Shown: positions 1,518-24,032, numbered from the stretch's first letter. The stretch: DNA of 33,185 bases from Elusimicrobiota bacterium (GCA_035332125.1 DAOQNO010000001.1:1-33185), one strand, 5' to 3'. Numbers and translations: made by a program. Notes: a model not told the origin generated them from the sequence alone.

Positions 1518-1570
1518 CCAAGGAGCCGGACGCCGCGGTCCCCGTCCACACTCATTGCTGAGAAGGGTAC

Positions 1571-2965
1571 ATGAAGCGACTCCTCCCCATCCTGGCTCTC
1601 CTTTGTCTCTGGGTTATTGCCCGCGCGGGCAAAAACCCCCTGCCGGAACCCGATCAGCAATCCCGGGTTTACCGATTCAAGCCCGTTCAATTCAAAACCA
1701 TTGATTCCTATTCCGATGAAAAACCCCTCTTAAACCAAATCGCCCGGGACACCTGGGGCTACTTCCGCGATTTGGTGGACAAACAGACCGGCATGCCCCT
1801 GGACAACGTGCTGATCGGCTCCACTTACACAAAAGTCAACAGCTACACCTCCACCACCAACATGGGGCTTTACCTCATGTGCCTGGTTTCCGCCGAAGAC
1901 TTCGGATACATAACGCGGACGGAAAGCCTCGCCCGGGCGCGGCGCCTTCTGTCGACGCTTCGGGAGGTGGACCATTGGGAAGGGCAATTTTTTAACTATT
2001 ACGAAACCATCACCACGGACGCCTCGTCGCGTTTCGTGTCCTCGGTGGACAACGGCTGGCTGGCCGCGGGGCTCATCGTGGCCCGACAAGCCTACCCCGA
2101 ATTGGAATCGGAAATCGATCCGATGCTTCGGCAAATGGATTTTTCGAAATTGTTCGATCCCGAGGCGGGTCAGCTCTATTTGGGATACGACGCCGACAAA
2201 AAGAAGCCCTCGGACTCCCATTACGGCTTGCTGTGCACGGAACCCCGTCTGGCCTCCTACATCGGCATCGCCAAGGGCGATTTGCCCCACGACCATTGGT
2301 ATCGGCTTTTTCGAACCCTCCCCCTGGATTGGGATTGGCAGAATCAAAAACCCAAGGGGAAAATCGTTGAAAAAGAAGGCGTTCCCGTTTTTTACGGCTA
2401 TTACGAGCGCAACAAAGTCCGTTGGGTGCCGTCCTGGGGCGGGAGCCTTTTTGAATTTTTGATGCCGACCCTCGTGTTGGACGAAGGCCGTCTATCGCCC
2501 AAGGGGTTGGGCGCCAACAACAAGATCGCCCTGGACGCCCAGATCCGCTATGCCCTCGAAGAACGGCGTTACCCGGTGTGGGGCCTTTCCCCCTGCGCCA
2601 CGCCCGACGATCCCCTGGGCTACAAGGAATACGGGGTTCCCTACTTGGGGGCCAAGGGCTACCGGGACGACGGCGTGGTCACCCCCCACGTGAGTTTTTT
2701 GGCCTTGTCCGTCGATGCGCCCCGGGCCATCGAAAACATTCGCCGTCTGGCGCGTTTCCGAAATTTCTATGGGGAATACGGATTTTACGACAGCATCAAC
2801 GTCAAGACGGGTCGAATTTCCCCGCGTTATTTGGCCTTGGACCAGGCCATGACGTTGGTGGCCCTGAACAATTACCTGAACAACGGCGCGATTCAAAAGC
2901 GGTTTTGGAGCCATTCCCTGATCCAGGCCCAATCCCGGCTACTCCGCGACGAGGTTTTTTTTTAA
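1571..2965 (+). CDS. Exported glucoamylase-like (alpha/alpha)6 glycoside hydrolase of DUF3131/GH144 type; candidate endo-beta-1,2-glucanase
   Basis: A purine-rich SD (GAGAAGGG, 1560-1567) precedes the ATG. The signal peptide is MKRLLPILALLCLWVIARA|GK. Motifs recalled from the 'glycoamylase'/DUF3131 family are present: NMGLYLMCLVSAEDFGYI, DNGWLAAGLIVA, WGGSLFEFLMPTLVL, YGFYDSINVKTG, LALDQAMTLVALNNYL. The family call is from memory, not from a search. Confidence 0.75.
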   Translation: MKRLLPILALLCLWVIARAGKNPLPEPDQQSRVYRFKPVQFKTIDSYSDEKPLLNQIARDTWGYFRDLVDKQTGMPLDNVLIGSTYTKVNSYTSTTNMGLYLMCLVSAEDFGYITRTESLARARRLLSTLREVDHWEGQFFNYYETITTDASSRFVSSVDNGWLAAGLIVARQAYPELESEIDPMLRQMDFSKLFDPEAGQLYLGYDADKKKPSDSHYGLLCTEPRLASYIGIAKGDLPHDHWYRLFRTLPLDWDWQNQKPKGKIVEKEGVPVFYGYYERNKVRWVPSWGGSLFEFLMPTLVLDEGRLSPKGLGANNKIALDAQIRYALEERRYPVWGLSPCATPDDPLGYKEYGVPYLGAKGYRDDGVVTPHVSFLALSVDAPRAIENIRRLARFRNFYGEYGFYDSINVKTGRISPRYLALDQAMTLVALNNYLNNGAIQKRFWSHSLIQAQSRLLRDEVFF

Positions 2966-2984
2966 GATATAACGGTCCGAATCG

Positions 2985-3755: not shown

Positions 3756-3783
3756 AAGCAAAGAACGAAAGTCAGGAGACGAT

Positions 3784-5733
3784 GTGAACGTCACGAAACG
3801 ACGTTGGATGCTGGTCGCCGCTCTGGCCGCCGCCGCCCCCTTGGGGGCCGCGGTGATTGATCCTTTTGAGTCCCTTTCGGGTTGGTCGACTTTCGCCGAT
3901 ACCGGGTCCACCGTGACTTTAAGCGCCGTCACGGGCGTCGCGGGCAACGCCCTTCAAATGAATTACGACATGACGGCCGGATCTTTTGTCGGCATCACCC
4001 GCACCTACAGTTCCCGGAATTACGCGGCCACGGGGGCCAACGCCCTCCGGTTCGCCTACCGGGCCTCGGGCCCCACCAACACGGCCCAAATCGAATTCGT
4101 CGACGCGGACAGCACCACCACGGTCTTGGCCGACGGCCTGGTTTACAAGTTTCCCGTGACCCCGGACAACACCTGGCGGGAACTCACCGTTCCCCTGACG
4201 GATTTCATTACCTTCGCCAACGGCAACTCTTCCTTCGATTTGTCCCAAACCGCGAAATTCAGCTTTGGCGTCACCAAAGACAACGGCTCGGCCGGGACCG
4301 GCACCGTTTATTTCGACGCGTTCCACTTGATCCGGGCGACCCAGCCCGTTTCCTTGATCGACGGCAGTGAAAATTCCATTCCCGGTTGCGTGGCCAATTC
4401 GGTTCTCAACACCTGCGTCAACGACCGCATCGGACCCCAGTCCATCATTTATTTCCAGAGCGCGGGGTCGGGATACTCCGCGGTCGTTTCGACGGTCACG
4501 ATGAAAGGGGCCAAAACCCGTGAACTCAAGTGCACCTTGGGCGGCGGGCAATTCTGCGGCGTGGCCGAGGAGCTGGGCGGAATGTCCCTCCGCGGCAACG
4601 AAAGCATTCGGTTTTACGCGGGTTCGAATTTCGGCGGTTCCTCCGTTAAAATGGAAGTGAAAGACGTGGCCAGCGTCACTTTCAGCACCACGGTCACGGG
4701 GCTCCCGGCGCCCCCGGCCAACTTTTCGACGTACACTTTTTCCGCGGCCGCCATCCAAGCGGCCCAGCCCGCCATCGACCTGAGCGCTCTCAAGGAAATT
4801 GTTTTTGTCTTTGACACCGCCGGCGCCCACGACCTTTATTTCGACGACCTGTCCATCGTTCCGCCCGCGGCGACTCTGGCCGACCTGTCCGTCGTGGAGG
4901 ATTTTGGGTCCGATCTGGCCGAAGGGAACTTCGTCACGGCGGCACCCACCCAGGCCACCGTGGGACTGTCCTACGTGGACGATCCGACGTCCTTGGGCGC
5001 CGGGGCCGACAACCGGGTGGCCAAGCTGGATTACAGCTTTGCCGTGGACCCTTCAACGCCCTTCGCCGTGGCGGAGCGGACGTTGGGCATCAACCTCCTG
5101 GCCGAGCCCGGTCTTCGCTTCCGGTTCAAAGGGACCGGGGGAAACGAAAATTTAGAGGTCAAAATCACCGACGGCGACGGAACGATCTACGTAAAGAAAT
5201 TGACCGAGGTGACGGACACCGGGGGGGTCTGGAAAACAGCCACCCTCAAAAGCGACCAGTTTTCCTTCAGCACGCTCGGCAGCGACGCGCGGTTGGATTT
5301 AAAGAACATTACGAAGGTGGACTTCGCGGTGTCTCTGGGCAAAGCGGCCGCGGGGACCTTGGCCTTGGACAATCTGGAATCCCTGCCGGCCACCGATTTT
5401 CAAAAAACGTCCATCGGACGCGTGTTGACCCAGGTGACCACCCCCAACAATCCCTTTTCCCCCAACGGGGACGGCATTAAGGACTCCTTCCGTTTAACCT
5501 ACACCCTCAGCCAAACGGCCCACGTGGTTCTCCGGTTTTACGCCCTGCACGGGGCTTTGATCAAAACCTTCGACGTCGGCGATCAAACGGCGGGGGACCA
5601 CGCCATCGATTGGGACGGCACCGCGGACGACGGGCGGCGGGTCGGCAACGGCCTGTGCCTGTTCTCCTTGGAGGCCGACGGAGCTATCGACGGGAAAGAC
5701 ACGTTTAAAGAAATCGCCGGGGTGCTCCGATGA
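3784..5733 (+). CDS. Secreted protein with 3 CBM-like beta-sandwich modules and a C-terminal FlgD-Ig/T9SS-like domain
   Basis: GTG 3784 lies 5 nt after AGGAG (3774-3778) and yields the signal peptide MNVTKRRWMLVAALAAAAPLGA|AV. Three ~160-aa modules each end in a '...G(T)-x-Y-F-D-x-(F/L)' strand (VYFDAFHL, LYFDDLSI, LALDNLE). The C-terminus (~5440-5730) has NPFSPNGDGIKDSF...VVLRFYALHGALIKTF...HAIDWDGTADDGRRVGNGLCLF. The ORF's maximal start, 3742, would overlap the upstream gene. Confidence 0.8.
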   Translation: MNVTKRRWMLVAALAAAAPLGAAVIDPFESLSGWSTFADTGSTVTLSAVTGVAGNALQMNYDMTAGSFVGITRTYSSRNYAATGANALRFAYRASGPTNTAQIEFVDADSTTTVLADGLVYKFPVTPDNTWRELTVPLTDFITFANGNSSFDLSQTAKFSFGVTKDNGSAGTGTVYFDAFHLIRATQPVSLIDGSENSIPGCVANSVLNTCVNDRIGPQSIIYFQSAGSGYSAVVSTVTMKGAKTRELKCTLGGGQFCGVAEELGGMSLRGNESIRFYAGSNFGGSSVKMEVKDVASVTFSTTVTGLPAPPANFSTYTFSAAAIQAAQPAIDLSALKEIVFVFDTAGAHDLYFDDLSIVPPAATLADLSVVEDFGSDLAEGNFVTAAPTQATVGLSYVDDPTSLGAGADNRVAKLDYSFAVDPSTPFAVAERTLGINLLAEPGLRFRFKGTGGNENLEVKITDGDGTIYVKKLTEVTDTGGVWKTATLKSDQFSFSTLGSDARLDLKNITKVDFAVSLGKAAAGTLALDNLESLPATDFQKTSIGRVLTQVTTPNNPFSPNGDGIKDSFRLTYTLSQTAHVVLRFYALHGALIKTFDVGDQTAGDHAIDWDGTADDGRRVGNGLCLFSLEADGAIDGKDTFKEIAGVLR

Positions 5734-6593
5734 ACCGCCGCTGGTCCTTTGCTTTCCTTTTGTTGGCCGCTCCCGCCCTGCGGGCGGCGTTCGAGCCCCT
5801 GGGGTACGGCGCCGCGGCCAAGGGCATGGGGGGCGCCTACGTGGCCTCCGCCGAAGACGGCACCGCCGCCTATTGGAACCCGGCCGGCCTGGCCCTGGTT
5901 CGTCAGCCGCAATTGACCGCTTCCATGGAAGACTTGTACGGATTGGGCCTCCTTCGCTACGCGGCCGTGGGTTATACCCATCCCCGGCTCGGCGGGGGAA
6001 CGCTGTCGGCCCATTTGCTCCATCTCGACACGACGGGCGAAGCCGATTTTTATAAATACGCCGAGAGCACTTACCTGGTGGCCTACGGCAAATCCCTCTG
6101 CCAGGACTGCCTGAGCGTGGGGGCGGGGCTCCGTTACTACGCCGCCCAGGGCGGCGGCGCCCGGGGGTCGGGCGTCGGCCTCGACCTGGGTCTTTTGTGG
6201 CGTCCCTTCGACGACCGCCTGCGCCTGTCGGCCGCTTGGCAGGACGCCAATCAGCCCTCCATTCGCTGGGACACGGGCGCCGAGGATCTCCAGCCCTACA
6301 CCGTCCGGACGGGCGCCTTGTTCCGTTTGACCACCACGACGGATTTGGCGGCGGAATGGGACAAGCGACGATTTGAGAAGGCCCAATGGCGGTTCGGCGG
6401 CGCCCAGCGATTGATGAAAAATCTGGTCACCTTCCGGGGCGGCCTCCACCGCGGGGGCGACCAGGAGCAATGGGGCTTTTCCGTGGGCGGCGGTTTCCAC
6501 TTCCGGACCTTTGATGTGGATTACGCCTGGGACAGCCAGGAAGCTCTCGGCAACACCCAAACCATGAGTCTCGGATTGAGGTTCGGCCAATGA
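5730..6593 (+). CDS. PorV/PorQ-like (UPF0164-like) outer-membrane beta-barrel protein
   Basis: The start overlaps the upstream stop as ATGA. The signal peptide is MNRRWSFAFLLLAAPALRA|AF. The N-terminal signature AAAKGMGGAYVASAEDGTAAYWNPAGLA matches the A-x-A-L-G-G-A...D(D/E)...NPA pattern of PorV/PorQ-type barrels. The rest shows alternating aromatic/Gly beta-strand periodicity and a C-terminal ...SLGLRFGQ. Confidence 0.7.
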   Translation: MNRRWSFAFLLLAAPALRAAFEPLGYGAAAKGMGGAYVASAEDGTAAYWNPAGLALVRQPQLTASMEDLYGLGLLRYAAVGYTHPRLGGGTLSAHLLHLDTTGEADFYKYAESTYLVAYGKSLCQDCLSVGAGLRYYAAQGGGARGSGVGLDLGLLWRPFDDRLRLSAAWQDANQPSIRWDTGAEDLQPYTVRTGALFRLTTTTDLAAEWDKRRFEKAQWRFGGAQRLMKNLVTFRGGLHRGGDQEQWGFSVGGGFHFRTFDVDYAWDSQEALGNTQTMSLGLRFGQ

Positions 6594-7876
6594 AAATCCT
6601 TCGTCCCGTTCTCGTCGGCGCGGTCCTGGTCGGAGCCCTCTCGATGGTTTCCACGGGCCTTCGCGCCGCGGGCCCCGTCCTCCTGCTCGACAATTTCGAT
6701 GAAGACAAGACCGAAAACGCCCTGGGCGGCGCCACCGGCGCCTGGATGGACCCCGAAGACAAAAGCCAGGGGTGCACCGCCTCGCGCGTCCAGCTGGACC
6801 GGCTGGGCTCCCTCGGGCGAAGCCTGCGACTTGATTTCGACATAGAAAGCCAACGGGAAAATATTCGGGTCCCCACGAATTTTTCCGTGGCCAGCCCGGC
6901 GGTCGCTTTGAACCAGGCCTTCAACGGTTATTACTCGGTGTTCCCGGCCCAGGACCTGCGCCCCTACAACTACTTGATTTTCTGGGCCAAGGGCGACGCC
7001 ACCGCCGGCTACACGCGTTCCTTTAAGATTGAAATCAAAGACGGTCTCAGCTCCGGCTACAAAGGATTTGTGATGGACGGATTGGGCACGGAATGGCGCC
7101 GGTTTGTCGTCCCCCTTCGGGATTTCGCCGACATCAAGGACTGGGGCGCGGTGAAGGAATTCGTGATCGTTTTCGCCGCCGACGCCGTGACGCGCAAAAA
7201 CGGCACTGTCTACATCGACGACGTGTATTTCGCCCAAAACCCCGACAACAATTTGACCCTCCCCGAACGGGAAATGACGGCCCGTCACGCCGAGAAACCG
7301 GTAACCCTGGACGGCAAGCCCTCCGAATGGCCCCGCCGGGATTTCATCGATTTGTCCCCTTCCGAATTCGTCGAATCCGGGGCCCGGGGGCTTCGGGACG
7401 CCGGGGCCCGCTTCGCCGTCCAGTGGGACGAGCAATGGCTTTATTTGACCGTTGATCTGGAAGACAACGAGATCCAAAACGGCGAAGAGGGCGAATCCCT
7501 GTGGAAAGGCGACGTGGTGGAGCTTTACGTCAACCCCACGGGTCCGGTTTTCACTTGGGGGGATCCGTCGGCGTTCCAGCTTGGTTTCTCCCCGGTGTCG
7601 GCTTCGGGCGTGCCGGGCCGGTGGGCGTGGTTTCAACGCCGGGCCCCCAAGGAAAACGAAGCCCGTTACGCCTGGGACAAAAAAAAGCACACAGCGGAAA
7701 TCGCCGTGGCCTGGTCGTTTTTGGGGGTCACCCCGGGCGTCAATCGGGACCTGGGTTTTTCCATCGCTTTTCACGACAAGGATTCCGCGGACGGAACGCC
7801 GGAAGCCAAGCTCCAGTGGAGTTTCCAGTCCCTGGGCGGTAAAAAAGCGCGACTTGGAAAGTTGGTGTTGAAATGA
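6590..7876 (+). CDS. Secreted carbohydrate-binding protein with an N-terminal CBM11/CIA30-like module and a C-terminal CBM9-like domain
   Basis: The start overlaps the upstream stop as ATGA, and a signal peptide ends ...STGLRA|AG. The N-terminal module reads LLLDNFDEDKTENALGGATGAW...YLIFWAKGD...FKIEIKD...WRRFVVPLRDFADI...VKEFVIVF...GTVYIDDVYF. The C-terminal part (~7262-7876) reads VTLDGKPSEWP...ARFAVQWDEQWLYLTVDLEDNEI...WKGDVVELYVNP...TAEIAVAWSFLG...GFSIAFHDKD, which fits a CBM9-like pattern. Confidence 0.75.
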   Translation: MKILRPVLVGAVLVGALSMVSTGLRAAGPVLLLDNFDEDKTENALGGATGAWMDPEDKSQGCTASRVQLDRLGSLGRSLRLDFDIESQRENIRVPTNFSVASPAVALNQAFNGYYSVFPAQDLRPYNYLIFWAKGDATAGYTRSFKIEIKDGLSSGYKGFVMDGLGTEWRRFVVPLRDFADIKDWGAVKEFVIVFAADAVTRKNGTVYIDDVYFAQNPDNNLTLPEREMTARHAEKPVTLDGKPSEWPRRDFIDLSPSEFVESGARGLRDAGARFAVQWDEQWLYLTVDLEDNEIQNGEEGESLWKGDVVELYVNPTGPVFTWGDPSAFQLGFSPVSASGVPGRWAWFQRRAPKENEARYAWDKKKHTAEIAVAWSFLGVTPGVNRDLGFSIAFHDKDSADGTPEAKLQWSFQSLGGKKARLGKLVLK

Positions 7877-10455
7877 AGCCCACTCGACGATGGAATTCCG
7901 CCCTGGCCGCCTTTCTCTGGTGGGGGGCCAATGTCCACGCGGACGCCGGTCAAACCCTCGCGGACTTTGACAACACCGCCCCGGAACTTTTCGCGTTCAA
8001 AGACGAGAAGGGAACCGTGCTGAACGCGAGCACCGCCTACGCCGACGGCGAGAAGGGCAAGCACCTGGGAATTCGCTACGGCATCGTTCCCGGCGGTTTC
8101 GGGGGCGCGGGCCTGGCGCTTAAAGGCTTCAACGCATCGGGATACCGTTATTTGGGTCTCGACATCCGGGGGGACGCGGGCGGGGAATCCTTCGACGTGG
8201 GTCTGCGGGACGCCAAAGGCCAGGAGCGGAAGCGGTCCATCGCCGCTTACACCGACGTGGCCAAAACTTGGCGGCGGGTGCTCATTCCTCTGGGGGATTT
8301 CGGCGGGGTGACGCTGTCCGCCCTGGACAATATCAGTTTTGGGTTTGCCGAGAAGAAAAAGGGGCGGATCTACATCGACAACATTGGTTTTGAAGGCGCC
8401 GCCGCGGGATCGGACGGGGCCCTGGTGAATAAAGTGGTCGTGGACGGTTTTGACCGCACCAACCCGACCCAGGCTTACCGGGTGTTCACCGGGGACCAGT
8501 CCTCCCTTTCCTTGACGTCGTCGCGGGTCCTCTTCGACGGCGACTATTCCATGGAGATGCAATACCAATTCTCGACCAACCGCCCCTGGGGCACCTGGGT
8601 TTCCGCCCAGCGGACGCCCGCCGAGCCGCTCAACTGGACCGGCATCGACGAGATCAAAATGTGGGTCAAGGGCGACGGTTCCGAAAACTATCTTCGTTTC
8701 CGTTTTACCGAATCCGACGGGGAAATTTGGGAATACGTGGACAAAACGGCCCTGGCGTCCACCCGGTGGACTCTGGTGGGCATGCCGATCAAGGCCTTCA
8801 AAATCGTCGGCCAACCGCCCAAGGGCACTCCGCCGGATTTGGCCGGGGTGAAGGCCTACGAAATCGCCTTGATGAGTCCGACCTCCTCCCAGACGTCGGG
8901 GGCTCAAGTCACCGCGGGACGCATCCAGGTCGACCTCCTTTACGTGACGGGAGAGCGTCTCTCTTCCGGCGCGATCGTGCCCGCCGCCGCGCCCCAACCG
9001 GGCGCCCCCGCCGGAGCGGCGATCCCGTCCGGCCGAATTCCCGGATTGGCCGCCGGCAACGTGGACTTCAGCCTTCAAGCCTACACCGAATATTTCTACA
9101 CGCCGGAAGAAAAAAGCGCGGTGAATCACCTGGCCAAACTCACCACGACCGGAAAATTGGGGAACTACAGCGCCCGGGTGGAGTTCGGGTCCACGTCCCA
9201 GGAATTTGGCCAAGCTTCGACCTTTGTCGGGTCTTCGGTGACGGCCACCACCAACCGCTTTCCCGGCTTGGAAATGCCCAGCTTCCAGGTCTTCATCACC
9301 AACCTTCACCCCGCGGTCTCCCTGGTGACCCTCGGAAACCTCTTCATCGATTATTCGCCGGATCTCTTCGCCCCGGTTTTCGGTTTTAAAGGCATCGAAG
9401 TGCAGGGCGACGTGGACCGCCTAAACTACGAAGGGTTCGTGATCAAACACTCCCTTAATTCGTTTACCGGCGGGGCCCGCGGGGTTTATTATCTGCCCAA
9501 TCTCAAGTTGTCGGCCTACGCGGTCTACTGGGAGCAGAACGGTCGGCAATCCAACGCCAGCACGGTGTCCGGCGGGTCCCTGCAACCGGCCGCCAACAGT
9601 GCCGTGTTGAAATTGGAGCGCCTGGCCCAGGACATGACGTACCACCTCCAGGCGGATGCCCGGACCTGGAACGACCGCCTTCGACTGGTCTCCCTTTACG
9701 GCTACAACACCTATCGCCAAAACGCCACCGCCGATTACAGCGATCCCTTCAACCCGGTGTTTTCCCAGTTCGTCGACCCGGCCTATCAAGCGGGGGGGCA
9801 CCTTTGGCGGAACCGGGTGGAACTCTACGGCGCCGGGGATTTCCTCGGCTGGCGGGGGTTGGACCTGGCGTACGGATACCGGGACATCGGCACGGGCTAC
9901 AAGCCCCATTTCCGGCAGGTGCCCGTATTCTACGACGACACGGATTCGGACCAATGGGGCCACAACGTCCGGGCCGTTCAGCGGCGCGGGGGGTGGACGC
10001 TCTCCGCCGAATACGACGCCATGCGTCGCCACTCCGACGCGGCCTATTTTCGGCACAAATTTCTCTGGGGCCTGGGTCACTACGGCTACCGGGGGATGGA
10101 CGTCTCCCTGACCCAGGATTACCGGCGGGAAACCTACAAGTTCACGAGCGACCGTTCCGCCTTTACCACCGACAAAAATGAAAAAGTGATCGGCACCGAA
10201 CTTTACGTCCGCGCCCAACTGTCGTCCCGGGTGGCCGGCTGGGTCAAGCCCCGGCAGGAGCGCATCTGGCACCCGGCGACGAACGGGACGTTCACTTCCG
10301 ACAGCCTTCAGGCCCGCTTGGAATATTACGTGGCCAACAACGCGAAGCTCTTCGCCGAACACAAGATCACGCGTTTCTCGGAGGCCGGCCTGGAGCCCCA
10401 AGGCACCCCCTTCGACGATAATTTTACCCGAATCAGTTTCGAAGTCGTGTTTTAG
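7873..10455 (+). CDS. Outer-membrane beta-barrel protein with two N-terminal CBM-like modules
   Basis: The start overlaps the upstream stop as ATGA. The signal peptide is ...AAFLWWGANVHA|DAG. Two modules are present (LADFDN...YLGLDIRGD...FDVGLRD...WRRVLIPLGDF...GRIYIDNIGF, and VVDGFDRTNP...IKMWVKGDG...LRFRFTESDG...RIQVDLLYV). A Pro/Ala linker (AAAPQPGAPAGAAIPSG) follows. From ~9070 there are ~460 aa of Tyr/Gly-rich amphipathic strands ending in a beta-signal with terminal Phe (FTRISFEVVF). Confidence 0.75.
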   Translation: MKPTRRWNSALAAFLWWGANVHADAGQTLADFDNTAPELFAFKDEKGTVLNASTAYADGEKGKHLGIRYGIVPGGFGGAGLALKGFNASGYRYLGLDIRGDAGGESFDVGLRDAKGQERKRSIAAYTDVAKTWRRVLIPLGDFGGVTLSALDNISFGFAEKKKGRIYIDNIGFEGAAAGSDGALVNKVVVDGFDRTNPTQAYRVFTGDQSSLSLTSSRVLFDGDYSMEMQYQFSTNRPWGTWVSAQRTPAEPLNWTGIDEIKMWVKGDGSENYLRFRFTESDGEIWEYVDKTALASTRWTLVGMPIKAFKIVGQPPKGTPPDLAGVKAYEIALMSPTSSQTSGAQVTAGRIQVDLLYVTGERLSSGAIVPAAAPQPGAPAGAAIPSGRIPGLAAGNVDFSLQAYTEYFYTPEEKSAVNHLAKLTTTGKLGNYSARVEFGSTSQEFGQASTFVGSSVTATTNRFPGLEMPSFQVFITNLHPAVSLVTLGNLFIDYSPDLFAPVFGFKGIEVQGDVDRLNYEGFVIKHSLNSFTGGARGVYYLPNLKLSAYAVYWEQNGRQSNASTVSGGSLQPAANSAVLKLERLAQDMTYHLQADARTWNDRLRLVSLYGYNTYRQNATADYSDPFNPVFSQFVDPAYQAGGHLWRNRVELYGAGDFLGWRGLDLAYGYRDIGTGYKPHFRQVPVFYDDTDSDQWGHNVRAVQRRGGWTLSAEYDAMRRHSDAAYFRHKFLWGLGHYGYRGMDVSLTQDYRRETYKFTSDRSAFTTDKNEKVIGTELYVRAQLSSRVAGWVKPRQERIWHPATNGTFTSDSLQARLEYYVANNAKLFAEHKITRFSEAGLEPQGTPFDDNFTRISFEVVF

Positions 10456-10462
10456 ACCCCGC

Positions 10463-12712
10463 ATGCGCCGCGTTTGGTGGCTCCTCCCCCTGCTGTTTTC
10501 GGTCCGGTCCGCCCGGGCCGAACGGCCGTTGGTGGTGTGGGCCATGGGCGAAGAGGGGAAAAAGATCGCCCTCATGGCCCGCCGGTTCGAGGCCGCCCAT
10601 CCCGGGGTCACCGTCGAAACCCAGGCCATTCCTTGGGAAGCCGCCCACGCCAAGCTGTTGACCGCCGTCGTGGGGGGCATTCCACCGGACGTGAGCCAGG
10701 TGGGCACGACGTGGATGGCCGAATTCGCGGCCATGGACGCGCTCGAACCCCTCGACGGCCGCGCCGCGTCATCGACCAACGCCCGTCCCGACGCTTTTTT
10801 CCCCGGATCGCTTCAAACCTGCCGCGTGGACGGCGCCCTCTACGGCGTTCCTTGGTACGTCGACACCCGCGTGCTCTTTTATCGAAAAGATTTGCTGGCG
10901 GCCGTCGGTTATCCGGACGGCCCGTCCACCTGGGAAGAGCTCACGGCCGCGGCCCGGAAATTGTCGACCCGGCGCACGGCCGACGGTCGACGGGCCTACG
11001 GCATCTCCCTCGGCGCCCGCAGCTGGACCGACCTTCTCATGGCGGTGTGGCAGAACGGCGGCGACCCCCTGCGTCCCACGTCGCCGGCTTTTTTTGGCGC
11101 CGTCCAGCATTACATCGGGTTCTTCCGCGACAATCTCACACCGACCAAGGAAGCGGCGGACGTGGATCTTTTCCACGCTTTCAAAACCGGCTACTTGCCC
11201 ATGTTCGTTTCGGGGCCCTGGATGTTGGAGCTGATCCGGAAAGAACTCCCCGAATTGGACGGTCGCTGGGGGGTGGCAATGCTTCCGGGGAAAAAATCCC
11301 GCACCTCCTTCGTGGGGGGATCCAACTTGGTTGTTTTCAAGGCGTCGAAACAAAAGGACCGGGCCTGGCAGTTCCTTGAATTCATGAGCGATCCGGCCAA
11401 CCAGGTCGAGTGGATGAAAAGCACGACCGATCTCCCGTCCGTGCAGGTGGCGTGGAAAGACCCCTATTTCAGCGACAAGCCCCTGGTGCAGGTGTTCGGC
11501 CGCCAACTGTTCGACACCGCGAGTCCGCCGACGGTGCCCGAATGGGAGCAGATCGCCAGCGCCATGGACGACACCATGGAGCGCGTGGTCCTCGATCCCG
11601 CCCAAACCGAGGACACCATCCGGGTGGCCCTGGCCGAATTGGAAACCCGCATTTTGAAACTCCGGTCGGCCCGAACCCGGGAACCGGGCAGTTGGCGGCG
11701 GTTCGGGCGATGGGCGGGCGTGGCGGCCCTTCTCCTCGCGGCGGCTCTCTGGTTAACGACGGTCGGACGCCTCCGTTCCCGGGCCGACGGCGCCCCGGGC
11801 GAAGCGCCCTTCCAGTTGCGGGAATTTTTCCAACGGGACATCGTCGGTCTGCTTTTCACCGTCCCCGCCCTGGTGCTCTTGGTGACGTTTCTTTTCCTGC
11901 CCATCGCGGTGTCCTTCCTCATGAGCTTGACCGACATTGATATTTTCAGCATCAACAAGTGGAAGGACGTTCAATTCATCGGGGTCAGCAATTACCTGCG
12001 CATCGTCCAGGACCCCGTGTTCTGGCGTTCCCTGTGGAACACCCTGTATTTCGCCGGGCTGGGCGTCCCGTTGACCATCGGCGTCTCGTTGTTGGCGGCC
12101 GTGGCCCTGAACCAGAAATTTGTCCGCGGCAAATCCCTTTTCCGCGTCGCTTTGTTCGCCCCGGTCGTGACCACCGTCGTGGCGGTGGCGGTCGTGTGGC
12201 GATGGCTCTACAACCCCGAATACGGCGCCTTCAATTGGTTTTTGCAGAATCTGGGCCTCAAAAAACTTTTCTGGCTCTCCGATTCCCGCACCTCCCTGCC
12301 GTCCTTGATCGTCATGGCCGTGTGGAAAAACTTCGGCTACAACATGGTCATCTTTTTGGCCGGCCTTCAAACCATTCCCGAAAGCCAATACGAGGCGGCC
12401 CGGATCGACGGGGCCAGCGCCTGGCAAAGTTTCCGCTACATCACCATCCCGGGGTTGGCGCCGACCCTGCTCTTCGTCCTCATCATGACGACCATCGGTT
12501 ATTTGCAGTTTTTTGCGGAACCCTACGTCATGACTCGGGGGGGGCCGCTGGATTCCACCATGTCCATCGTCCTCTACATGTACAACCACGGCTTTCGGTT
12601 TTTCAATTTGGGTTACGCCTCGGCCATCAGTTACGCCCTCTTCGGCCTGATCTTTATGTTTACCTTCGTGCAAATGCGTCTTAAGAAGAACGGATTCGAG
12701 GTGTTTGTTTGA
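10463..12712 (+). CDS. CUT1-family sugar ABC transporter with a solute-binding protein fused to a MalF/UgpA-type permease
   Basis: It has a signal peptide (MRRVWWLLPLLFSVRSARA) and a family-1 SBP pattern (LVVWAMGEEGKKIALMARRFEAAHPGVTVETQAIPWEAAHAKLLTAVVGGIPPDVSQVGTTWMAEFA). A junction TM (WAGVAALLLAAALWLTTV, ~11701-11760) leads into a 6-TM permease with an EAA loop (ESQYEAARIDGASAWQSFRYITIPGLAP, ~12378-12460). It is one uninterrupted ORF. Confidence 0.85.
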   Translation: MRRVWWLLPLLFSVRSARAERPLVVWAMGEEGKKIALMARRFEAAHPGVTVETQAIPWEAAHAKLLTAVVGGIPPDVSQVGTTWMAEFAAMDALEPLDGRAASSTNARPDAFFPGSLQTCRVDGALYGVPWYVDTRVLFYRKDLLAAVGYPDGPSTWEELTAAARKLSTRRTADGRRAYGISLGARSWTDLLMAVWQNGGDPLRPTSPAFFGAVQHYIGFFRDNLTPTKEAADVDLFHAFKTGYLPMFVSGPWMLELIRKELPELDGRWGVAMLPGKKSRTSFVGGSNLVVFKASKQKDRAWQFLEFMSDPANQVEWMKSTTDLPSVQVAWKDPYFSDKPLVQVFGRQLFDTASPPTVPEWEQIASAMDDTMERVVLDPAQTEDTIRVALAELETRILKLRSARTREPGSWRRFGRWAGVAALLLAAALWLTTVGRLRSRADGAPGEAPFQLREFFQRDIVGLLFTVPALVLLVTFLFLPIAVSFLMSLTDIDIFSINKWKDVQFIGVSNYLRIVQDPVFWRSLWNTLYFAGLGVPLTIGVSLLAAVALNQKFVRGKSLFRVALFAPVVTTVVAVAVVWRWLYNPEYGAFNWFLQNLGLKKLFWLSDSRTSLPSLIVMAVWKNFGYNMVIFLAGLQTIPESQYEAARIDGASAWQSFRYITIPGLAPTLLFVLIMTTIGYLQFFAEPYVMTRGGPLDSTMSIVLYMYNHGFRFFNLGYASAISYALFGLIFMFTFVQMRLKKNGFEVFV

Positions 12713-13554
12713 ACGCCCGGGGCAAACGTTGGATGTCCGACGCCGTTGCCGCGGGGGGCGTGCATTTCCTCCTGGCCATCGCCGCGGCGGCCACGCTGAT
12801 GCCGTTTTTTTGGATGATCTCCACGTCGTTCAAGAACGGCGGGGGGCTTTTTACCTATCCCCCCACCTGGATTCCCCGGGACCCGACCCTTCAATGGTAC
12901 GCCCAGTTGGTGCGGGAGGTGAATTTCCTGGTCCATTTCCGCAACAGCGTGTTCGTCTCCGTGGCCATCACGGTCCTGAGCTTGTTCGTCAATTCCATGG
13001 CCGGTTACGCTTTCGCCAAGCACCGTTTCCGCCATCGGGACAAAATATTTAGTTTCCTCCTGGCCACCATGATGGTTCCCGGCCAGTTGACCATGATCCC
13101 CGTTTTCCTGTTGTTGAAAAAGATGGGTTTCCTGAACAGTTTTCTTGGTTTGATCGTGCCGGTGTGCGCCAACGTCTTCGGTATTTTCCTGATCCGCCAG
13201 TTTATGATGTCGATCCCCAACGATCTCATCGAATCGGCCCGAATCGACGGTTGCTCGGAATTTCGGATTTATTGGAGCGTGGTGCTGCCCCTGTGCAAGC
13301 CGGTCCTGGCCACGCTGAGCATCTTCACCTTCATCGGGTCCTGGAACGATTTTCTCTGGCCCCTGATCGTCATGGTGCGGGAGGACGGCTACACCCTCCC
13401 GGTCGCCCTGGCCAATTTAAACGGCCAGCACCCGACGGATTTCGGTCTCCTCATGGCGGCCGCGACGGTTGTGGTCCTGCCCGTGCTCGTGGTCTTTTTG
13501 GCGGCCCAGAAGTACGTGATCCGCGGCATCGCCACCACGGGCCTCAAGGAATAA
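12709..13554 (+). CDS. CUT1-family sugar ABC transporter permease (MalG/UgpE-like)
   Basis: TTG 12709 overlaps the upstream TGA as TTGA; ATG 12733 is an alternative start. The EAA loop is NDLIESARIDGCSEFRIYWSVVLPLCKP, and the typical MalG-like motifs FFWMISTSFK and FLWPLIV are present. Confidence 0.85.
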   Translation: MNARGKRWMSDAVAAGGVHFLLAIAAAATLMPFFWMISTSFKNGGGLFTYPPTWIPRDPTLQWYAQLVREVNFLVHFRNSVFVSVAITVLSLFVNSMAGYAFAKHRFRHRDKIFSFLLATMMVPGQLTMIPVFLLLKKMGFLNSFLGLIVPVCANVFGIFLIRQFMMSIPNDLIESARIDGCSEFRIYWSVVLPLCKPVLATLSIFTFIGSWNDFLWPLIVMVREDGYTLPVALANLNGQHPTDFGLLMAAATVVVLPVLVVFLAAQKYVIRGIATTGLKE

Positions 13555-14770: not shown

Positions 14771-17700
14771 ATGGAGCGGTGCGGACAACGAAAGGGATTC
14801 ACCAACAAGGCGACGGCCGAAGGGCGGGACGCGCGGGGCGGAACGCGTTGGATCGCCGCGCTGGTGGTCCTGTGGGTCGCCGCCTCGGCGATGGCCGCCG
14901 ACGGCCTCGCCTCCGCGCGCTCCCGAGGGGTGTTCAACATCGGCCCTTCCCAGGGCACCGTCAACACGCTCCAGGATCCGGACCTCCAGAAACCGGTTTT
15001 AAAATTTGATTTCACCGCGCCGGCCGGCGCGTTGGTGGGCGTGTGGACCAAGGATTATCCCTCGACGGTGAACGCCGGGGCGGTCCAGCGCGTGGTCGTT
15101 TCGGTCAAAGGGCCGACGGTTCCGCCGCCCGCTTCCGTGGCCCTCGAGATAAAGGGCGTCCGGGAAGTTCAACGCCTCCCCCTCGTCCTGCGCGCCGGGT
15201 GGAATCGGACCGAATCGGCGATTGATTGGGGTCGCATCGGGGCTTTGAAAGAAATCGTTTTTGTCGTTTCGTCGGCCCCCGGCCAAAAGGCCGCCGGGAC
15301 CCTATTGTTTGATTTGGAATTTGCGGCCGGAGCGCCCGCGTCCGCCGCGGTCCTTCCCGCGGACGCCCAGGCCCTGGACGCGGCCCACGCCCCCGCCCGG
15401 GGGTTCTTCAACATCGGACCCGCCGACGGGAAAGCGACCGCCGTTCCGGGCCCCGACGGCCGGGGCGCGCTCCAATTCGATTACGCCATCCCGCCCAAAT
15501 CCATGGCCGGGGTGTGGACGAAAGGCTATCCGCCCGCCCTTTCCCCGGCCACGGCGAACGCGGTGGAGGCGACGGTGCGTTTTCCCGCGGCGGGCGCCGC
15601 GCGCCGTTTGTCGGCCACGGTGGAACTCAAAGGAACGAAAGCCGTCCAACGCATCCCCCTCGAGTTGACCGACGGTGTATCCAAATCCCTTCACGCCGTC
15701 GATTGGAAAACCATCGGAAAGCTCAAAGAGGCCGTCCTGGTCGTGTCGCCGGCCGGGGGGAAAAGCGAAACGGGAACCCTTCTCTTTAATTTGGCGTTCG
15801 TGAAGCGCGCCGTGTTGCCCAAAACGGGCGGCGCCCGCCGTTTGGCGGAGGTGGCGGAGCGGGGCGCATTCAACATCGGCAAAGCCCAGGGAACGATTTC
15901 CCGCGTTCGGGACGGGGAACTCCGCCGGGACGTCCTTCGGTTTGATTTCACGGCCGCGCCCAAGGCGGTCGTGGGGTTGTGGAGCAAGGGCTACGCGGCG
16001 GATTTGTCCGCGGCCGTGGCCAACGCGGTGTCCGTGGGGGTCAAAGGCGGGCGCGGGGCCCCCGTGGCCGCGGTGGGTTTGGAAATCAAGGGCGACAAAG
16101 AAACCCAACGCATTCCCCTTTCCGTGGGCGCCGAATGGACCCGAACCGATCGGGCGGTGGAGTGGGACGCGATCGGAAAGGTAAAGGAAGTCGTTTTCGT
16201 CGTCACGCCCCTGGACCCGGCCAAAAAAAGCGCGGGCCGTTTCTATTTCGATCTGGCGTTTGAAAAAACACCGGTGGCGCCCGCCGGCGCGCCGGGGTTG
16301 GGTCTCTTGAGCGCCACGGAAAAAGGCGTGTTCACCATCGGCGGCGCGGAAGGGCGCGTGGTCATCGAGTCCGAGGCCGCGGCCAAAAAAAATGTTTATA
16401 AATTCACCTACGCCGTGGCGAGCGGCAGTTTGGCGGGCGTTTGGACCAAGGGATACCCGGCCGACTTGACGGCCGCCACCGCCAACGCCATCAACGCGGC
16501 GGTTAAAACGACCACCCCGGAGCAACGGGAAACCTTGTCCGTCGCCCTTGAGTTGAAGGGCGACAAGGCCGTTCAGCGCGTTCCGTTGGAAACGGGCGAC
16601 GGGTGGGCCACCACCGAACACGCCATCGACTGGCCGACCATCGGAAATCTGAAGGAAGCCGTTTTTGCCGTCACCCCCGCCCCCGGCCGATCCAGCCGGG
16701 GCGACCTGTATTTCGACCTTTCTTTCCTCCAGGGAGGAACGCCGGATCTCGCCGGGGCCGGCGCCCCGGGCGCCTTCGGGTTGTTGAACGCCGGCAAGCG
16801 CGGGGTGTTCAACATGGGGGCCTCGGACGGCCGGATCCTCGTGGCTTTTGACGACACCGTCAAAAAGGACCTGATTCGATTTGAATTCACCGCCGCCAGC
16901 GGGTCCGCCGTGGGGGTGTGGAGCAGCGAGTATCCCCCGGCCTTGACGCCGGAAACGGCCAACGGCGTTCGCGTGGCGGTCCACGCCGCGGACGCGGCCC
17001 AGGCGGCCGCCGTGGCGGTGGCCGTTGAGATCAAGGGCCTCAAGGAAACCCAGACCGTGGAAGTTCCTCTCCACGAAGGGTGGACGACGGTGCGGGAAGG
17101 GGTGGATTGGAAAACCATCGGGGGGCTCAAAGAAGCGGTGTTCGTCGTCAAGCCGACCCCGGGCGGCGGATCCGTCAACGGGGCGCTGACGCTGGATCTG
17201 GAATTCATCCAAGGCGATTTTGTCCTGAAGAAAGGCCCCCGGGTCGGCGGTAAGATCGGCTTGGTGTTGCTGACGGGCTTCCTTCTTTTTCTCGCGACGG
17301 CTTTGGTCGGCCGATGGATCCGCGGTCGGTCGCCGTCGGTTCCGGCCCCGGACGCCATCCCCGTTCCGGGGATGGGTCGGGATCTCTTGATGGGATCCCT
17401 TTTGACGGCCGGCCTCGTCGGGACGGTGGCCACCTTCGTGGTGGGTTCCCTCCCGGGGTCCGAAGGGTCTTTCGGGTTTCTGTTGTTGGGCGCCCTGGGC
17501 GCCTTGGTGGGCGAAGGCGCCACCCGGATTCTGGCTCAACGCCCGGGCACCCCGGGCGAAGTCTTCCTGAATTTTGTCTACACCGGCTTGGTGGCCGCGA
17601 GCTCAAGCCTTCAGCCCCTGTGGTTGGCGCCCACCAACGGCGCCCACATATTCCTGAACAACCACCTGACGGCGGCGGTGTTGTTCGCGCTCTACCACGG

Positions 17701-20700
17701 GGTCAACGCCGCTTCCCTCGCCTCGACCGGGAAACCCCTTCGGCCGGTGGTCGGCGCGCTCCTCACCGGCGTTCCGACCCTTTTCGGCGCGCTCCTGGCC
17801 CTTCAGAGCGCCGGATTCGTCGAGGGCCTGGCCGACGCGCTCACCGGGGGCGGTTTCGCCGGACGCGGCCTGCTTCTCCAGACCCTGGGGCGGGTTTTGC
17901 TGGTGTTCGCGGTCAACGAAGCCGTGGCCAACGCCATCGGGCTCGCCGTCAAAGGCAAGGGCCTCACCTCGGCCCGTGGGCATTTGCTTCTTTTCGCCGT
18001 GTCGCTCGGCGTTGTCGTGGCGCCCCAAATCGCGGACGCCGGGTCGTCGGCTTGGGTCGCTTCCCTGCCGCCGCCGGCCGCGGCCGGCGTGGCCGTAGCG
18101 GCCGCCATGGTCGCCCAGGCGGGCCTGTGGGTGGAGGTGTATCTGGTCTCCGGCCTGGTGTTGGACGGGATTTACGGATACGCCCCCGCCCGGGTTCCCC
18201 TCTACCGGCACGCCGCCGTGGGCCTGCAAAAAGGTCTCGCCTTCAGCGGACTTTTCCTCGGCGTTCTGTTCGCGGTCAAGCTCGGATTGTCCGTGGCCGC
18301 GGTCCAGGAATTTCTCGCGGGATCGCCGCTGTTGGCCGGGGCGGTCCTCGGGGCTCTGGTTTATCCTTTCGCCAAGGCGATCGTGGAAAGCTTTGACGGG
18401 AGCATGTCGTTTTTCCGCCGAGCGGTCTACAGTTACCGGAACGGAACCCTTTACGTTCGCGGCGCGGTGGCGGGCGCGGCCCTGGCCTTCGGTTTCACCG
18501 GCGGGTGGGCCGCCCGTTCCACCGGCGAACGCCTCGCCTTCGGCCTTCTGGCCGGCGCCCTCGCTTCGGCGGGGATCAGTGTGCTCCGCGACGCGGTTTA
18601 CGCCGCCACCCGCCGCGGTCGCGTGGGCGTTTGGAAAATTTATCTGGTCGACGGCGGATTGGGGGCCTTCATCGGCGCGGCCTTGGCTTTTTATTTGGAC
18701 GCCGCCCAGGTGCCCGTGTTGGTGGAAAAATTCAAACTTTACACCTCGAGCGGTTTGCCCTCCCAGAACTACACGATTTACGCGCTTCTCAGCAAATGGG
18801 GCCGGGTGGATCTGGGTTCCTTTGCCGGCGGGGCCAAACTGTTCTTCAACGAATCCCTGGCCGGGGTCCTGACCTGGGCCATCGCGGCGTGGCTGTTCGC
18901 GGTCAACCGGGTGTTCATGACCGCGTACTTTCAAAAGGACAAGCAGCCGATCCGGCACTTTTTCTCCCGGGCCGGCCTCGTGGAGTTGGGCGTCAACACG
19001 ATTCACGTGCTTCGCTGGGGTCTGTGGATGGCGCCCATCATCAACACGGGCCTCCGAATGATGGGCCACGCCACCTGGTACAACCAGGACGGCGCGATTC
19101 GAACCCTGGTGGCCATCGTCAAGAACATCACGCTCCACCCCGCGGATTTTCAAGCCTGGAGCCTGAACTTGTTCGTGGCGTTGCTGGCCTACGACGCGGT
19201 CCGCGTGTTGATCTGGATCGACCACATGGGCCTGCGGGTGGCGACCCTCGTCAACCTGAGCTTCCTCGGCATGGACAAACTGGACGAACGCATCGCCCGT
19301 TTCATCGGACCCTCCGCCGCCCAGCGTTACATTCCCGAAGGGGTCAAACGGTTCACGACCTGGGCCCCGCTCCTGATCCCGTTCTACATTCCCCGGGGAG
19401 CGGACTGGGACATGGCCTGGGAAACCTCCCAAAAAATGCAGCGGGCCGCCGCCGAAGCCGGCGGTTTGGACGCTTTTCTCCGGGGCGTTTCGCCCCTGGC
19501 CTGGGCCCTCTGGGGCGCCGGCGCCCTGGCCCTCTTCACGGGACTGATTGTCCTTGGTCGCAAGCGCGCGGAACGTCGTTCGGGGGTCCGGGCCCATGCC
19601 GCGGAATTGGCGAACCGGGAGTACAAGGTGGTGATCAAGGAAAACGGCGAATTCCACAGTGAAATTCTGCAAAAGGGATACGACGTGACCCGCCGGTCCT
19701 ACGACACCCTGGACCCCGCCGGCCGAACCCTGTTTTTGGTCGACACCGAAATCCCGCTCGGGCGCCCGGGCCGCTATTGGCCCCTGGCCGGGAATTTCCC
19801 CCGGGATCGCTTCGACGCGCCCGTGGTTGAGCGTTTCGGCGACGCCCTCCGTTTGATGACTTCCTCCCACGGCGTGCGCGCCACGATCGACGTCCGTCTG
19901 CCGGACCGGGACACCCCGGCGGAGCTGTGGACCCTCACCCTGGAGAACCAGTCCGACCAGCCCCGTCAATTGGTGGCCGTTCCCTACGTGGAGTGGGTGC
20001 TGGATCGACCCGATTCCGACAAAGGACATACCCAGTATGGCCGCCTCTTCCCGGAGATGGAATACGTCCGGGAATCCAACGCCGTCCTGGCCTGGCAGAA
20101 AAAGACGAAGACCATGGGGTATCTGGCGGTTCAAACGGCGCCCCGGGGGTTCTGCACGTCCCGCATGGATTTCATCGGACGCGCCCGAAGTCTCTGGTCT
20201 CCCCGGTTGTTGGAAACCCTTAAATTCTTGGACCCGCAAGACACGGCGGGGTACCCCACCTTCGACCCCATCGCCGGCTTAAAAATCGACGTGGAATTGG
20301 GCGCCCGGGAATCCAAAACTCTCCGTCTGATTTTGGGGAGCGCGAAAAGCCGGGAAGCGGCTCTGGCCGTTCTGCAAAAGCACCTTCGACCCGAAACCGT
20401 GGCGCCGGCCAGCCCGGCCCGGAAGGGCCACCGGGTGCCGCTGATCGGCCACGGCGAAATTCCACCGGGAACGCCCCAGCCGTACTCCGACTATTCGCCC
20501 GATGGAAACACCCTGCGGGTGCACACGCCCCTTACCCCGCGCCCCTACGATCACGCCCTCTCGAACGCGGTGGGGCACTACGTGATGGTCACGAACCGGG
20601 GGCTCCACACGACCTCCAACGGCAATTCCCAGCAAAACCCCGTGACCCCCGATTGGCCCGACACGGTCACCCGGGAGCTTCCCGCCGAGGCCATTTATCT

Positions 20701-23971: not shown

Positions 23972-23991
23972 AGCCACAAGCCCGGCGGCGA

Positions 23992-24013: not shown

Positions 24014-24032
24014 CGCGCCCGCGGGGTGGCCT

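Follow-up and report, generated by a model that had tools for sequence, protein, structure and literature searches.

In a type 9 secretion system (T9SS), cognate pairs of a C-terminal domain (CTD) and an outer-membrane barrel are the part that decides the destination of a protein, and such pairs have so far been studied only in Bacteroidota. Binding to PorV anchors the T9SS protein PorU to the outer membrane, and binding to PorQ does the same for PorZ; in this attachment complex of Porphyromonas gingivalis, the surface protein keeps its immunoglobulin (Ig)-like CTD and is held by a 14-strand barrel of the FadL fold (PMC12365241). Type B cargos have cognate PorP/SprF barrels as binding partners, and the genes of the two are often adjacent; SprB-SprF and PG1035-PorP belong to the many paralogous, linked cargo/barrel pairs of Bacteroidota, in which a cargo is anchored non-covalently to its own barrel (PMC9143113, PMC12618676). 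Here we examined two overlapping genes at 3784-6593 of a 33-kb contig (the window, meaning the whole stretch of DNA analysed) from a metagenome-assembled genome (MAG) of Elusimicrobiota. The first encodes a sugar-binding protein with a T9SS-like tail (cargo 1) and the second a PorV-like barrel (barrel 1); a paralogous pair (cargo 2 and barrel 2) lies further downstream. The GC content of the window is about 63%, and all plausible genes lie on the + strand. The features of the two pairs are as follows.

3784..5733, + strand: cargo 1, a 649-aa, predicted Sec-exported protein rich in carbohydrate-binding modules (CBMs) (translation, Pfam)
5446..5730, + strand: CTD of cargo 1, about aa 555-649 (FlgD_ig; NPFSPNGDGIKD motif; ends ...FKEIAGVLR)
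5730..6593, + strand: barrel 1, a 287-aa outer-membrane 14-strand barrel of the FadL/PorV fold (NF033709, AlphaFold2 (AF2) model, Foldseek, profile search)
25571..27145, + strand: cargo 2, secreted, 524 aa, ending in a CTD of CHU_C type (CHU_C 32.7 bits)
27147..28073, + strand: barrel 2, a 308-aa paralogous PorV/PorP-like barrel (NF033709, TIGR03519 and our barrel hidden Markov model (HMM))

We propose that cargo 1 and barrel 1 are cognate partners in a cargo/anchor module working like PorU-PorV or SprB-SprF, and give this reading a probability of about 0.62. Its likeness to the P. gingivalis attachment complex shows in the profile searches: among solved T9SS structures, the profile of barrel-paired CTDs matches those of PorU and PorZ best, and the barrel profile matches PorV over its full length. 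The gene order is likewise that of porU and porV, which are adjacent in P. gingivalis and Flavobacterium johnsoniae, with porU directly 5' of porV. Unlike PorU and PorZ, the passenger is a CBM protein, not a sortase or a lipopolysaccharide carrier. Unlike PorV, barrel 1 lacks long loops and is shorter by about 115 residues, the extra residues of PorV being insertions between the conserved blocks of the alignment. The host also differs, being a member of Elusimicrobiota, and has no known SprA, PorKLMN or anionic lipopolysaccharide (A-LPS) context.

As in type B pairs, the cargo gene is linked to its own barrel gene (by an ATGA overlap in the window, by adjacency in five relatives and by enrichment at the -1 position), both window CTDs bear an (S/T)PNGDGxxD motif, and cargo 2 passes the CHU_C cut-off. 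Fusions of related barrels to tetratricopeptide repeat (TPR) or OmpA domains recall the link of PorP to peptidoglycan through PorE (PMC9143113). Unlike type B pairs, the window proteins score far under the TIGR04131 and TIGR03519 cut-offs, and among the barrel-paired CTDs, matches to type B are fewer than those to the type A, PorU and FlgD_ig models.

The cargo tail and the adjacent barrel

Cargo 1 starts at GTG 3784 in the NCBI gene call (649 aa), other callers choosing ATG 3808 (641 aa). An N-terminal signal peptide (KRR, a hydrophobic stretch and GAA/V) is followed by CBM11-like and CIA30-like beta-sandwich domains and then by the C-terminal Ig-like CTD. The protein exceeded the Pfam cut-offs for CBM_11 (PF03425; 53.2 bits over two stretches, cut-off 27) and FlgD_ig (PF13860; 43.4 bits at aa 567-632, gathering cut-off 27), gave 23.4 bits for CIA30 and weakly matched SGBP_B_XBD. 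NCBI names it 'carbohydrate binding domain-containing protein' or 'FlgD immunoglobulin-like domain containing protein'. Its C-terminal end reads ...NPFSPNGDGIKDSF...VLRFYALHGALIKTF...IDWDGTADDGRRVGNGLCLF...GVLR. Type B CTD models gave 18.8-23.6 bits for CHU_C (PF13585; cut-off 27) and 18.4-22.2 bits for TIGR04131 (cut-off 35), the isolated CTD reaching 23.6 and 22.2 bits, both under cut-off; the type A model TIGR04183 (cut-off 23 bits) had no match in cargo 1.

The tail of cargo 2 (ITPNGDGQNDF..., ending ...LAVAR) passed CHU_C with 32.7 bits against a cut-off of 27 and stayed under TIGR04131 (20.9 bits, cut-off 35) and TIGR04183 (15.3 bits, cut-off 23); NCBI calls the protein 'gliding motility-associated C-terminal domain-containing protein'. 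The motif shared by the two tails is typical of CHU_C/type B CTDs.

An HMM built from the two window CTDs and iterated over all open reading frames (ORFs) of the fetched loci found 42 proteins, and the domain ended no more than 3 residues from the C-terminus in 41 of them; on cargo 1 it gave E 7.7e-26, at the extreme C-terminus. We aligned the 25 CTDs that precede a barrel and obtained the consensus PNPF...I.IY...G..V......WDG.N..G..V..G.Y.......K..V.(R/K/H). Taken singly, these paired CTDs matched FlgD_ig (22/25), CHU_C (20/25) and Por_Secre_tail (13/25) in Pfam, and TIGR04183 (type A; 21/25 at E < 0.01), PorZ (14/25) and TIGR04131 (type B; 9/25) in NCBIfam. The C-terminal end of the PorU sortase model was matched by 19 of the 25, with a best E of 8.9e-19. 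Against solved structures, the paired-CTD profile matched the CTD of PorU (6za2, residues 1055-1154) with E 1.3e-12, that of PorZ (5m11) with E 1.1e-8, and FlgD with E 2e-12. As a family, the paired CTDs therefore look more like type A, PorU and PorZ than like type B. The window CTDs appear to sit between the named classes, because their motif is CHU_C/type B-like, their TIGR04131 scores are sub-threshold and their family leans toward type A and PorU. A strict type B label, favoured by the motif and by the CHU_C score of cargo 2, was considered for them and not adopted, given the same sub-threshold scores and the nearness of the whole family to type A/PorU.

Barrel 1 starts on the ATG of the ATGA overlap with cargo 1 ('ctccgATGAaccgc'), has a signal peptide ending LRA/A and carries AAAKGMGGAYVASAEDGTAAYWNPAGL. 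It matched the PorV/PorQ family NF033709 with 77.3 bits (E 1.5e-21) over positions 9-326 of the 326-position profile. An AF2 model built on an alignment of 41 relatives (predicted local distance difference test score (pLDDT) 89.4) has 14 long strands, two short strand segments and an N-terminal hatch segment with a conserved YWNPAGL motif. A Foldseek search of the PDB ranked FadL mutants first by E-value; the highest query-normalised template modelling (TM) scores belonged to F. johnsoniae PorV (8gl6_F, 0.77; 6h3i_F, 0.71, root-mean-square deviation (rmsd) 4.4 A), with FadL at about 0.70. The profile of the barrel family matched solved PorV (6h3i_F) over its full length with E 6.6e-21, whereas the FadL-type channels CymD and TodX matched it only at the N-terminal motif, with E of about 1e-3. 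Because PorV is matched full length and FadL-type channels at the N-terminal motif only, barrel 1 is, by its profile similarity, a PorV homologue within the FadL fold and not a FadL-type transporter.

Barrel 2 starts 1 nt past the stop codon of cargo 2 (TGA-t-ATG). It gave 49.3 bits for NF033709 (E 5.3e-13) and 31.5 bits for TIGR03519 (PorP/SprF), both sub-threshold, and E 4.8e-54 with the barrel HMM. Both window barrels are annotated as 'hypothetical' in public records, barrel 1 being 100% identical to NCBI 'hypothetical protein PKB12_00995 [Elusimicrobiota bacterium]'.

A reading of the window made earlier from the sequence alone had described a 649-aa CBM-rich secreted protein with a FlgD-Ig/T9SS-like tail, a PorV/PorQ-like barrel of about 290 aa starting on an ATGA overlap and carrying a signature sequence, and a second such pair at 25571-28073; all three descriptions agree with the signal peptide, tail, signature, domain scores and junctions given above. 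Where it looked to T9SS models, similarity was borne out for the CTD (FlgD_ig, and CHU_C for cargo 2) and for the barrel (PorV/PorQ), and the TIGR04131 and TIGR04183 cut-offs for the cargo 1 tail, like those of PorV/PorQ and PorP/SprF for the barrel, were missed.

Conserved adjacency and co-divergence

Scanning the barrel alignment against GTDB species genomes yielded 80 loci from many phyla. Of the 42 ORFs bearing the CTD, 25 were followed by a same-strand barrel gene, the gap between the two ranging from -3 to +294 nt. With the window itself excluded, a CTD protein was encoded at the -1 position of 24 of 78 barrels, at +1 of 2 of 76, and at all other positions in 15 of 457 cases, a 13-fold enrichment at -1 (Fisher odds ratio 13, p 1.4e-12). 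The paired loci came from Elusimicrobiota, Latescibacterota, KSB1, Zixibacteria, Poribacteria, Cloacimonas, FCPU426 and several MAGs that are unclassified or whose labels are doubtful; the pairing holds in at least 8 phylum-level groups. The cargos of the paired loci were often 1,500-2,000 aa long. In a neighbour-joining tree, the paired barrels were diverse, long-branched members; the 'solo' barrels of about 350 aa from Poribacteria and a Bacteroidota/Ignavibacteria group formed compact clades.

Relatives of barrel 1 at 39-59% identity (loci L007, L008, L087, L088 and L089) had a CBM+FlgD_ig cargo directly 5' in five of five cases, each pair lying in the same kind of locus with GH144, CBM9, CBM-barrel and ABC importer genes (described below). 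L007, L008 and L088 keep both pair types, with the pair-2-type module directly before the pair-1-type one. A relative with 50% identity (P0024) is named PorP/SprF by NCBI and matches PF11751.

We then compared the divergence of the partners. Across the 25 pairs, CTD distances and barrel distances were correlated (Mantel r 0.73, permutation p <= 2e-4), and type-1 CTDs always occurred with type-1 barrels and type-2 CTDs with type-2 barrels. This matched divergence fits cognate specificity. The two modules of one genome were as distant from each other as modules across phyla (0.83-0.9), and orthologous modules between genomes were separated by 0.4-0.5. Pair 2 (25571-28073), in which CTD and barrel are each of a type of their own, is an old paralogous module.

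Some barrels of the family carry further domains. Two have a C-terminally fused FlgD_ig-like domain (P0070, L092 3310-4650; and L032 6001-7251) and are also preceded by a CTD protein. Others are fused to TPR or OmpA domains (among them P0096, L090 1771-3225, and P0095), and the TPR-fused barrels examined were preceded by CTD proteins. In L090, two CTD genes stand in succession, one of only 112 aa. In L088, a gene for a 125-aa 23S_rRNA_IVP protein (PF05635; 2619-2996) lies between the pair-2-type cargo and its barrel, and the pair thus tolerates an insertion in the genome concerned.

The proposed module and competing readings

In the module as we propose it, cargo 1 would be exported by Sec and act as a multi-CBM glycan-binding protein of a glucan-utilisation operon. 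Its last ~95 residues would fold as an Ig-like CTD of T9SS type, which would be recognised by, and stay non-covalently bound to, the PorV-like barrel encoded by the overlapping downstream gene. Barrel 1 would in this way hold cargo 1 on the outer membrane, most likely at the cell surface, and the outer membrane might be crossed through a T9SS-like translocon encoded elsewhere or by something else. Cargo 1, a CBM9 protein, a CBM-barrel fusion and an ABC (ATP-binding cassette) importer of the same operon would together serve beta-glucan capture and uptake. CTD type, PorV homology, conserved adjacency and co-divergence all support the dedicated CTD-cargo/barrel module that the sequence-only reading had put forward; the surface display that it also suggested is likely, and the module may or may not depend on a T9SS. 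That reading had named an unrelated tail, a barrel of FadL type and an adjacency lost in relatives as grounds for abandoning the idea; the tail resembles the CTD models, the barrel lies outside the FadL family, and the adjacency holds both in the close relatives and across phyla.

Several findings weigh against the proposed module. Barrel 1 falls short of the curated NF033709 cut-off (77.3 against 90 bits) and far short of the cut-offs of the equivalog models (PorV 13.9, PorQ 28.1 and PorV2 52.2 bits); it has no match to PorP/SprF (TIGR03519 / PF11751; cut-off 90.55 bits), and the type B CTD scores of cargo 1 are sub-threshold as well. Because of these scores under curated cut-offs, the module is, judged by sequence similarity, 'like' T9SS carrier/anchor pairs without reaching threshold membership in the PorV/PorQ, PorP/SprF and type A CTD families or, in the case of cargo 1, the type B CTD family. 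The extracellular loops of PorV enter SprA and wrap the substrate CTD (PMC10994853), whereas every inter-strand connection in the model of barrel 1 has 8 residues or fewer and none is as long as those wrapping loops. The loci that enter the adjacency test lack phylogenetic independence, and plain linkage and vertical descent would produce part of the Mantel signal. Translational coupling, another element of the sequence-only reading, stands as far as the ATGA overlap itself goes; since 4-nt overlaps of this type join consecutive genes at 5730, 6590 and 7873 and thus run through the whole operon, coupling is not specific evidence for the pair and was dropped as such. No SprA/Sov, PorK/L/M/N, PorU, PorT or PorW family member was found in the window by Pfam and NCBIfam scans (18 proteins each, 20 in total), as had been anticipated from the sequence. 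A survey of 1,528 diderm genomes from 2016 placed the T9SS only in Bacteroidetes (PMC4793230), and later reviews extend it to the Fibrobacteres-Chlorobi-Bacteroidetes (FCB) group (PMC11205867).

These last points bear equally on whether cargo 1 and barrel 1 are an ordinary T9SS cargo and carrier. A complete, perhaps divergent T9SS would then be encoded elsewhere in the genome, and barrel 1 would be a specialised PorV/SprF-type shuttle collecting cargo from the translocon, which we consider possible though on the unlikely side. Both CTD and barrel are homologous to T9SS parts, and the names 'PorV/PorQ family' and 'PorP/SprF' are already in use at NCBI for Elusimicrobiota proteins. Relatives also encode orphan CTD proteins: at L087 10689-12317, a GH144-like (Glycoamylase) enzyme bears the same CTD with no adjacent barrel and would have to share one, in parallel to the orphan type B cargos of F. 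johnsoniae that share one carrier (PMC12618676). Set against this are the reported confinement of the T9SS to Bacteroidetes or the FCB group and the outcome of full-text literature searches, which gave no T9SS for Elusimicrobia(ota) and no such CTD/barrel pairs outside Bacteroidota. No core gene was present in the window or among the genes called in the displayed flanks of L001-L006; for the flanks of the FCB and Poribacteria 'solo' barrels, gene maps suggested no T9SS genes, the ORFs there not being family-scanned. Barrel 1 moreover lacks the SprA-inserting loops of PorV, so CTD recognition cannot copy the PorV-in-SprA mode even with a T9SS elsewhere.

An improbable alternative places the contact on the other side of the membrane: the barrel would receive the CTD on its periplasmic face, with the CBM protein located in the periplasm and passing oligosaccharides to the ABC importer. 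Such a tether would agree with the FlgD_ig-like domains fused behind the barrel C-terminus (P0070 and L032), which is periplasmic in FadL/PorV-type barrels, with the periplasmic TPR or OmpA domains fused to the barrel in many relatives, and with the near absence of extracellular loops from barrel 1. However, all characterised CTD proteins of the superfamily end up outside the cell (PMC9143113, PMC12618676), CBM11/CBM30-type modules normally meet polymeric substrate extracellularly, and the operon already encodes a solute-binding protein.

It is very improbable that barrel 1 is a FadL-type uptake channel for the operon substrate or a hydrophobic compound, with an unrelated Ig-like tail on a cargo that is its neighbour only through shared glucan uptake. 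Like FadL and TodX, barrel 1 has 14 strands, an N-terminal hatch with an NPA motif and a comparable fold (TM ~0.70), it weakly matches Toluene_X and TraF_2 (Pfam) at its N-terminus, and it lies in a sugar-uptake operon. Its FadL/TodX score was nonetheless 12.1 bits (PF03349; cut-off 29.7), confined to the N-terminal 37 residues, whereas the similarity to PorV is full length. The conserved neighbour of the barrel gene codes for a CTD protein instead of an enzyme of lipid or aromatic-compound catabolism; the order of CTD gene then barrel gene recurs with unrelated cargos, in other phyla and outside sugar loci; and pair 2 lies outside the transporter operon of the window. FadL channels, furthermore, carry hydrophobic compounds and not glucans. 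Because sequence and conserved context disagree with the transporter reading, we rejected it on the profile evidence and the conserved CTD partner.

Least probable of all is a self-contained two-partner secretion in which the barrel, together with the beta-barrel assembly machinery (BAM), would by analogy with type 5 secretion be a pore for unfolded cargo that needs no T9SS. In its favour, the module is present in phyla without a reported T9SS, the one barrel per cargo and strict gene order resemble TpsA/TpsB logic, and the operon also contains a cis fusion of a CBM protein to a barrel. Against it, the model of barrel 1 shows 14 strands and, at the N-terminus, a hatch segment of the kind that occupies the lumen in FadL and PorV; POTRA domains and Omp85/TpsB similarity are absent; and the cargos of other members are huge multi-domain proteins.

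Returning to the cognate cargo/anchor module, the two-gene logic known from Bacteroidota now appears in Elusimicrobiota as well as in several more phyla; the barrels are stripped down, and the cargos extend from sugar-binding proteins to 2,000-residue giants. The existence of such barrel proteins in Elusimicrobiota is not new, because some MAGs of the phylum already have homologues annotated as 'PorV/PorQ family protein' or 'PorP/SprF'. In the literature searched we found no description of the CTD-gene/barrel-gene module outside Bacteroidota, of the minimal-loop barrel form, or of its use in a glycan operon of a phylum without a reported T9SS. A broader idea, which we hold tentatively and think rather unlikely, is that a CTD and a minimal barrel make up a module for surface anchoring (or secretion) that stands by itself in many phyla and works without the T9SS translocon of Bacteroidota. 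It may even be the ancestral unit from which T9SS carriers and attachment proteins (PorV, PorQ, PorP/SprF) were recruited, and in Elusimicrobiota it may be served by the barrel-TPR/FliG-like/coiled-coil/FlbD-MotA-MotB cluster described below. If the hosts lack SprA and the GldLM/PorLM motor, 1) outer-membrane display by CTD and barrel would need no T9SS; 2) annotations of T9SS-type CTDs outside Bacteroidota would need a different reading; and 3) the pair would be a minimal two-protein system for studying CTD recognition. The module also suggests how an uncultured phylum builds polysaccharide capture without SusC/SusD or lipoprotein surface glycan-binding proteins (SGBPs), and its surface-display design, in which a tag is combined with a 287-aa barrel, could lend itself to transfer in engineering.

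The surrounding glucan locus and a barrel-TPR cluster

Pair 1 is part of one closely packed sugar locus (1571-22804), which also encodes a two-CBM protein; six other assemblies carry the same locus with identical gene order. The other features of the window are listed below (GH, glycoside hydrolase).

1-1440, + strand: gene entering the window start (C-terminal end; 1-5711 in locus L001), for a protein of 5,240 aa without a recorded Pfam hit
1571..2965, + strand: GH144-like (DUF3131 + Glycoamylase) enzyme heading the locus, a putative beta-1,2-glucanase (Pfam)
2985-3755, + strand: LacI-family protein of 256 aa; PurR/CytR/RbsR models match only from about profile position 136
6590..7876, + strand: CBM9-containing secreted sugar-binding protein (Pfam CBM9_1, 36.8 bits), with a 4-nt overlap with barrel 1
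7873..10455, + strand: 860-aa protein with two CBM11/CBM30-like domains and a large C-terminal outer-membrane beta-barrel (Pfam; AF2)
10463..13554, + strand: sugar ABC importer, a solute-binding protein/permease fusion (749 aa) plus a second permease (Pfam SBP_bac_1, 161 bits; BPD_transp_1)
14771..22804, + strand: 2677-aa protein with C-terminal GH94 supersandwich and catalytic domains (GH94_b-supersand, 231.6 bits; Glyco_hydro_94, 206.4 bits)
23168-25584, + strand: three signal-peptide proteins of about 270 aa just 5' of cargo 2, the last overlapping the start of cargo 2

With its GH144-like and GH94 proteins, several secreted CBM proteins and an ABC importer, the locus reads as a glucan-utilisation operon of non-Bacteroidota type, and the GH144-like and GH94 families make beta-1,2-glucan a possible substrate. 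The 2677-aa protein has about 1,900 residues of secreted-looking repeats before its GH94 phosphorylase-type C-terminus. Cargo 1 is comparable to the SGBPs of polysaccharide utilisation loci in Bacteroidota in being a multi-CBM, non-catalytic protein of a glycan operon, encoded beside outer-membrane and import components. Unlike SGBPs, which are lipoproteins working with SusC/SusD, it has no lipobox; its anchoring would rely on the proposed CTD/barrel pair, and import on the ABC system. In relatives, the GH144-like gene adjoins the pair in L087 and L089, GH144-like homologues also occur within the L007 and L008 loci, and the CBM9 gene stands directly 3' of the barrel in L008, L088 and L089.

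The gene for the 860-aa protein follows the cargo/barrel pair and the CBM9 gene in every relative locus covering that position, and homologues of the protein (39-85% identity) were found only in Elusimicrobiota. In its AF2 model (pLDDT 75.6), CBM11/CBM30-like sandwiches (aa 26-365; target-normalised TM 0.73 with the CBM11 structure 1v0a) are followed by a disordered linker and by a barrel of roughly 20-22 strands (aa 397-859, ending FEVVF), which had no Pfam family and no convincing match among PDB barrels. This CBM-barrel is the cis-fused counterpart of the trans CTD/barrel design. Its candidacy as a translocon was also considered: Foldseek placed SprA first by E-value, with TM scores of 0.16/0.08 and an rmsd of 32 A. 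Because AlgE, ushers and porins score alike, the SprA match amounts to generic large-barrel similarity, and we drew no conclusion from it.

Of the remaining neighbours, the 256-aa LacI-family protein is, by its profile matches, without a helix-turn-helix DNA-binding domain; its 278-aa counterpart in L089 likewise has Pfam matches only of the Peripla_BP type. The last 479 aa of the 5,240-aa protein had no Pfam or NCBIfam family and no CTD, and the three proteins of about 270 aa had none besides a weak DUF7507 match.

A PorV-like barrel of about 540 aa fused to TPR occurs, highly conserved, throughout Elusimicrobiota (60-90% identity across >300 clusters), Endomicrobium included. It belongs to a fixed cluster with a 660-680-aa membrane-anchored FliG_M/FliG_C + TPR protein and a 700-875-aa proline-rich coiled-coil protein, followed by FlbD, MotA and MotB. 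Examples, all outside the window, are these.

L093 10001-18231: barrel-TPR cluster
L048 5845-12802: barrel-TPR cluster
L058 5872-12623: barrel-TPR cluster
L059, L035 and others: further barrel-TPR clusters

The cluster thus sets a flagellar-type stator and FliG beside a PorV homologue in bacteria mostly without flagella. According to a preprint, non-flagellated Elusimicrobiota have motAB, flbD and fliG, genes whose role there it describes as unclear (10.1101/2022.07.08.499144). Speculatively, their linkage to a PorV-like barrel points to an outer-membrane machine coupled to a motor, which could be the Elusimicrobiota partner for CTD proteins. Giant CTD proteins are encoded 5' of the barrel-TPR gene in L028, L049 and L046.

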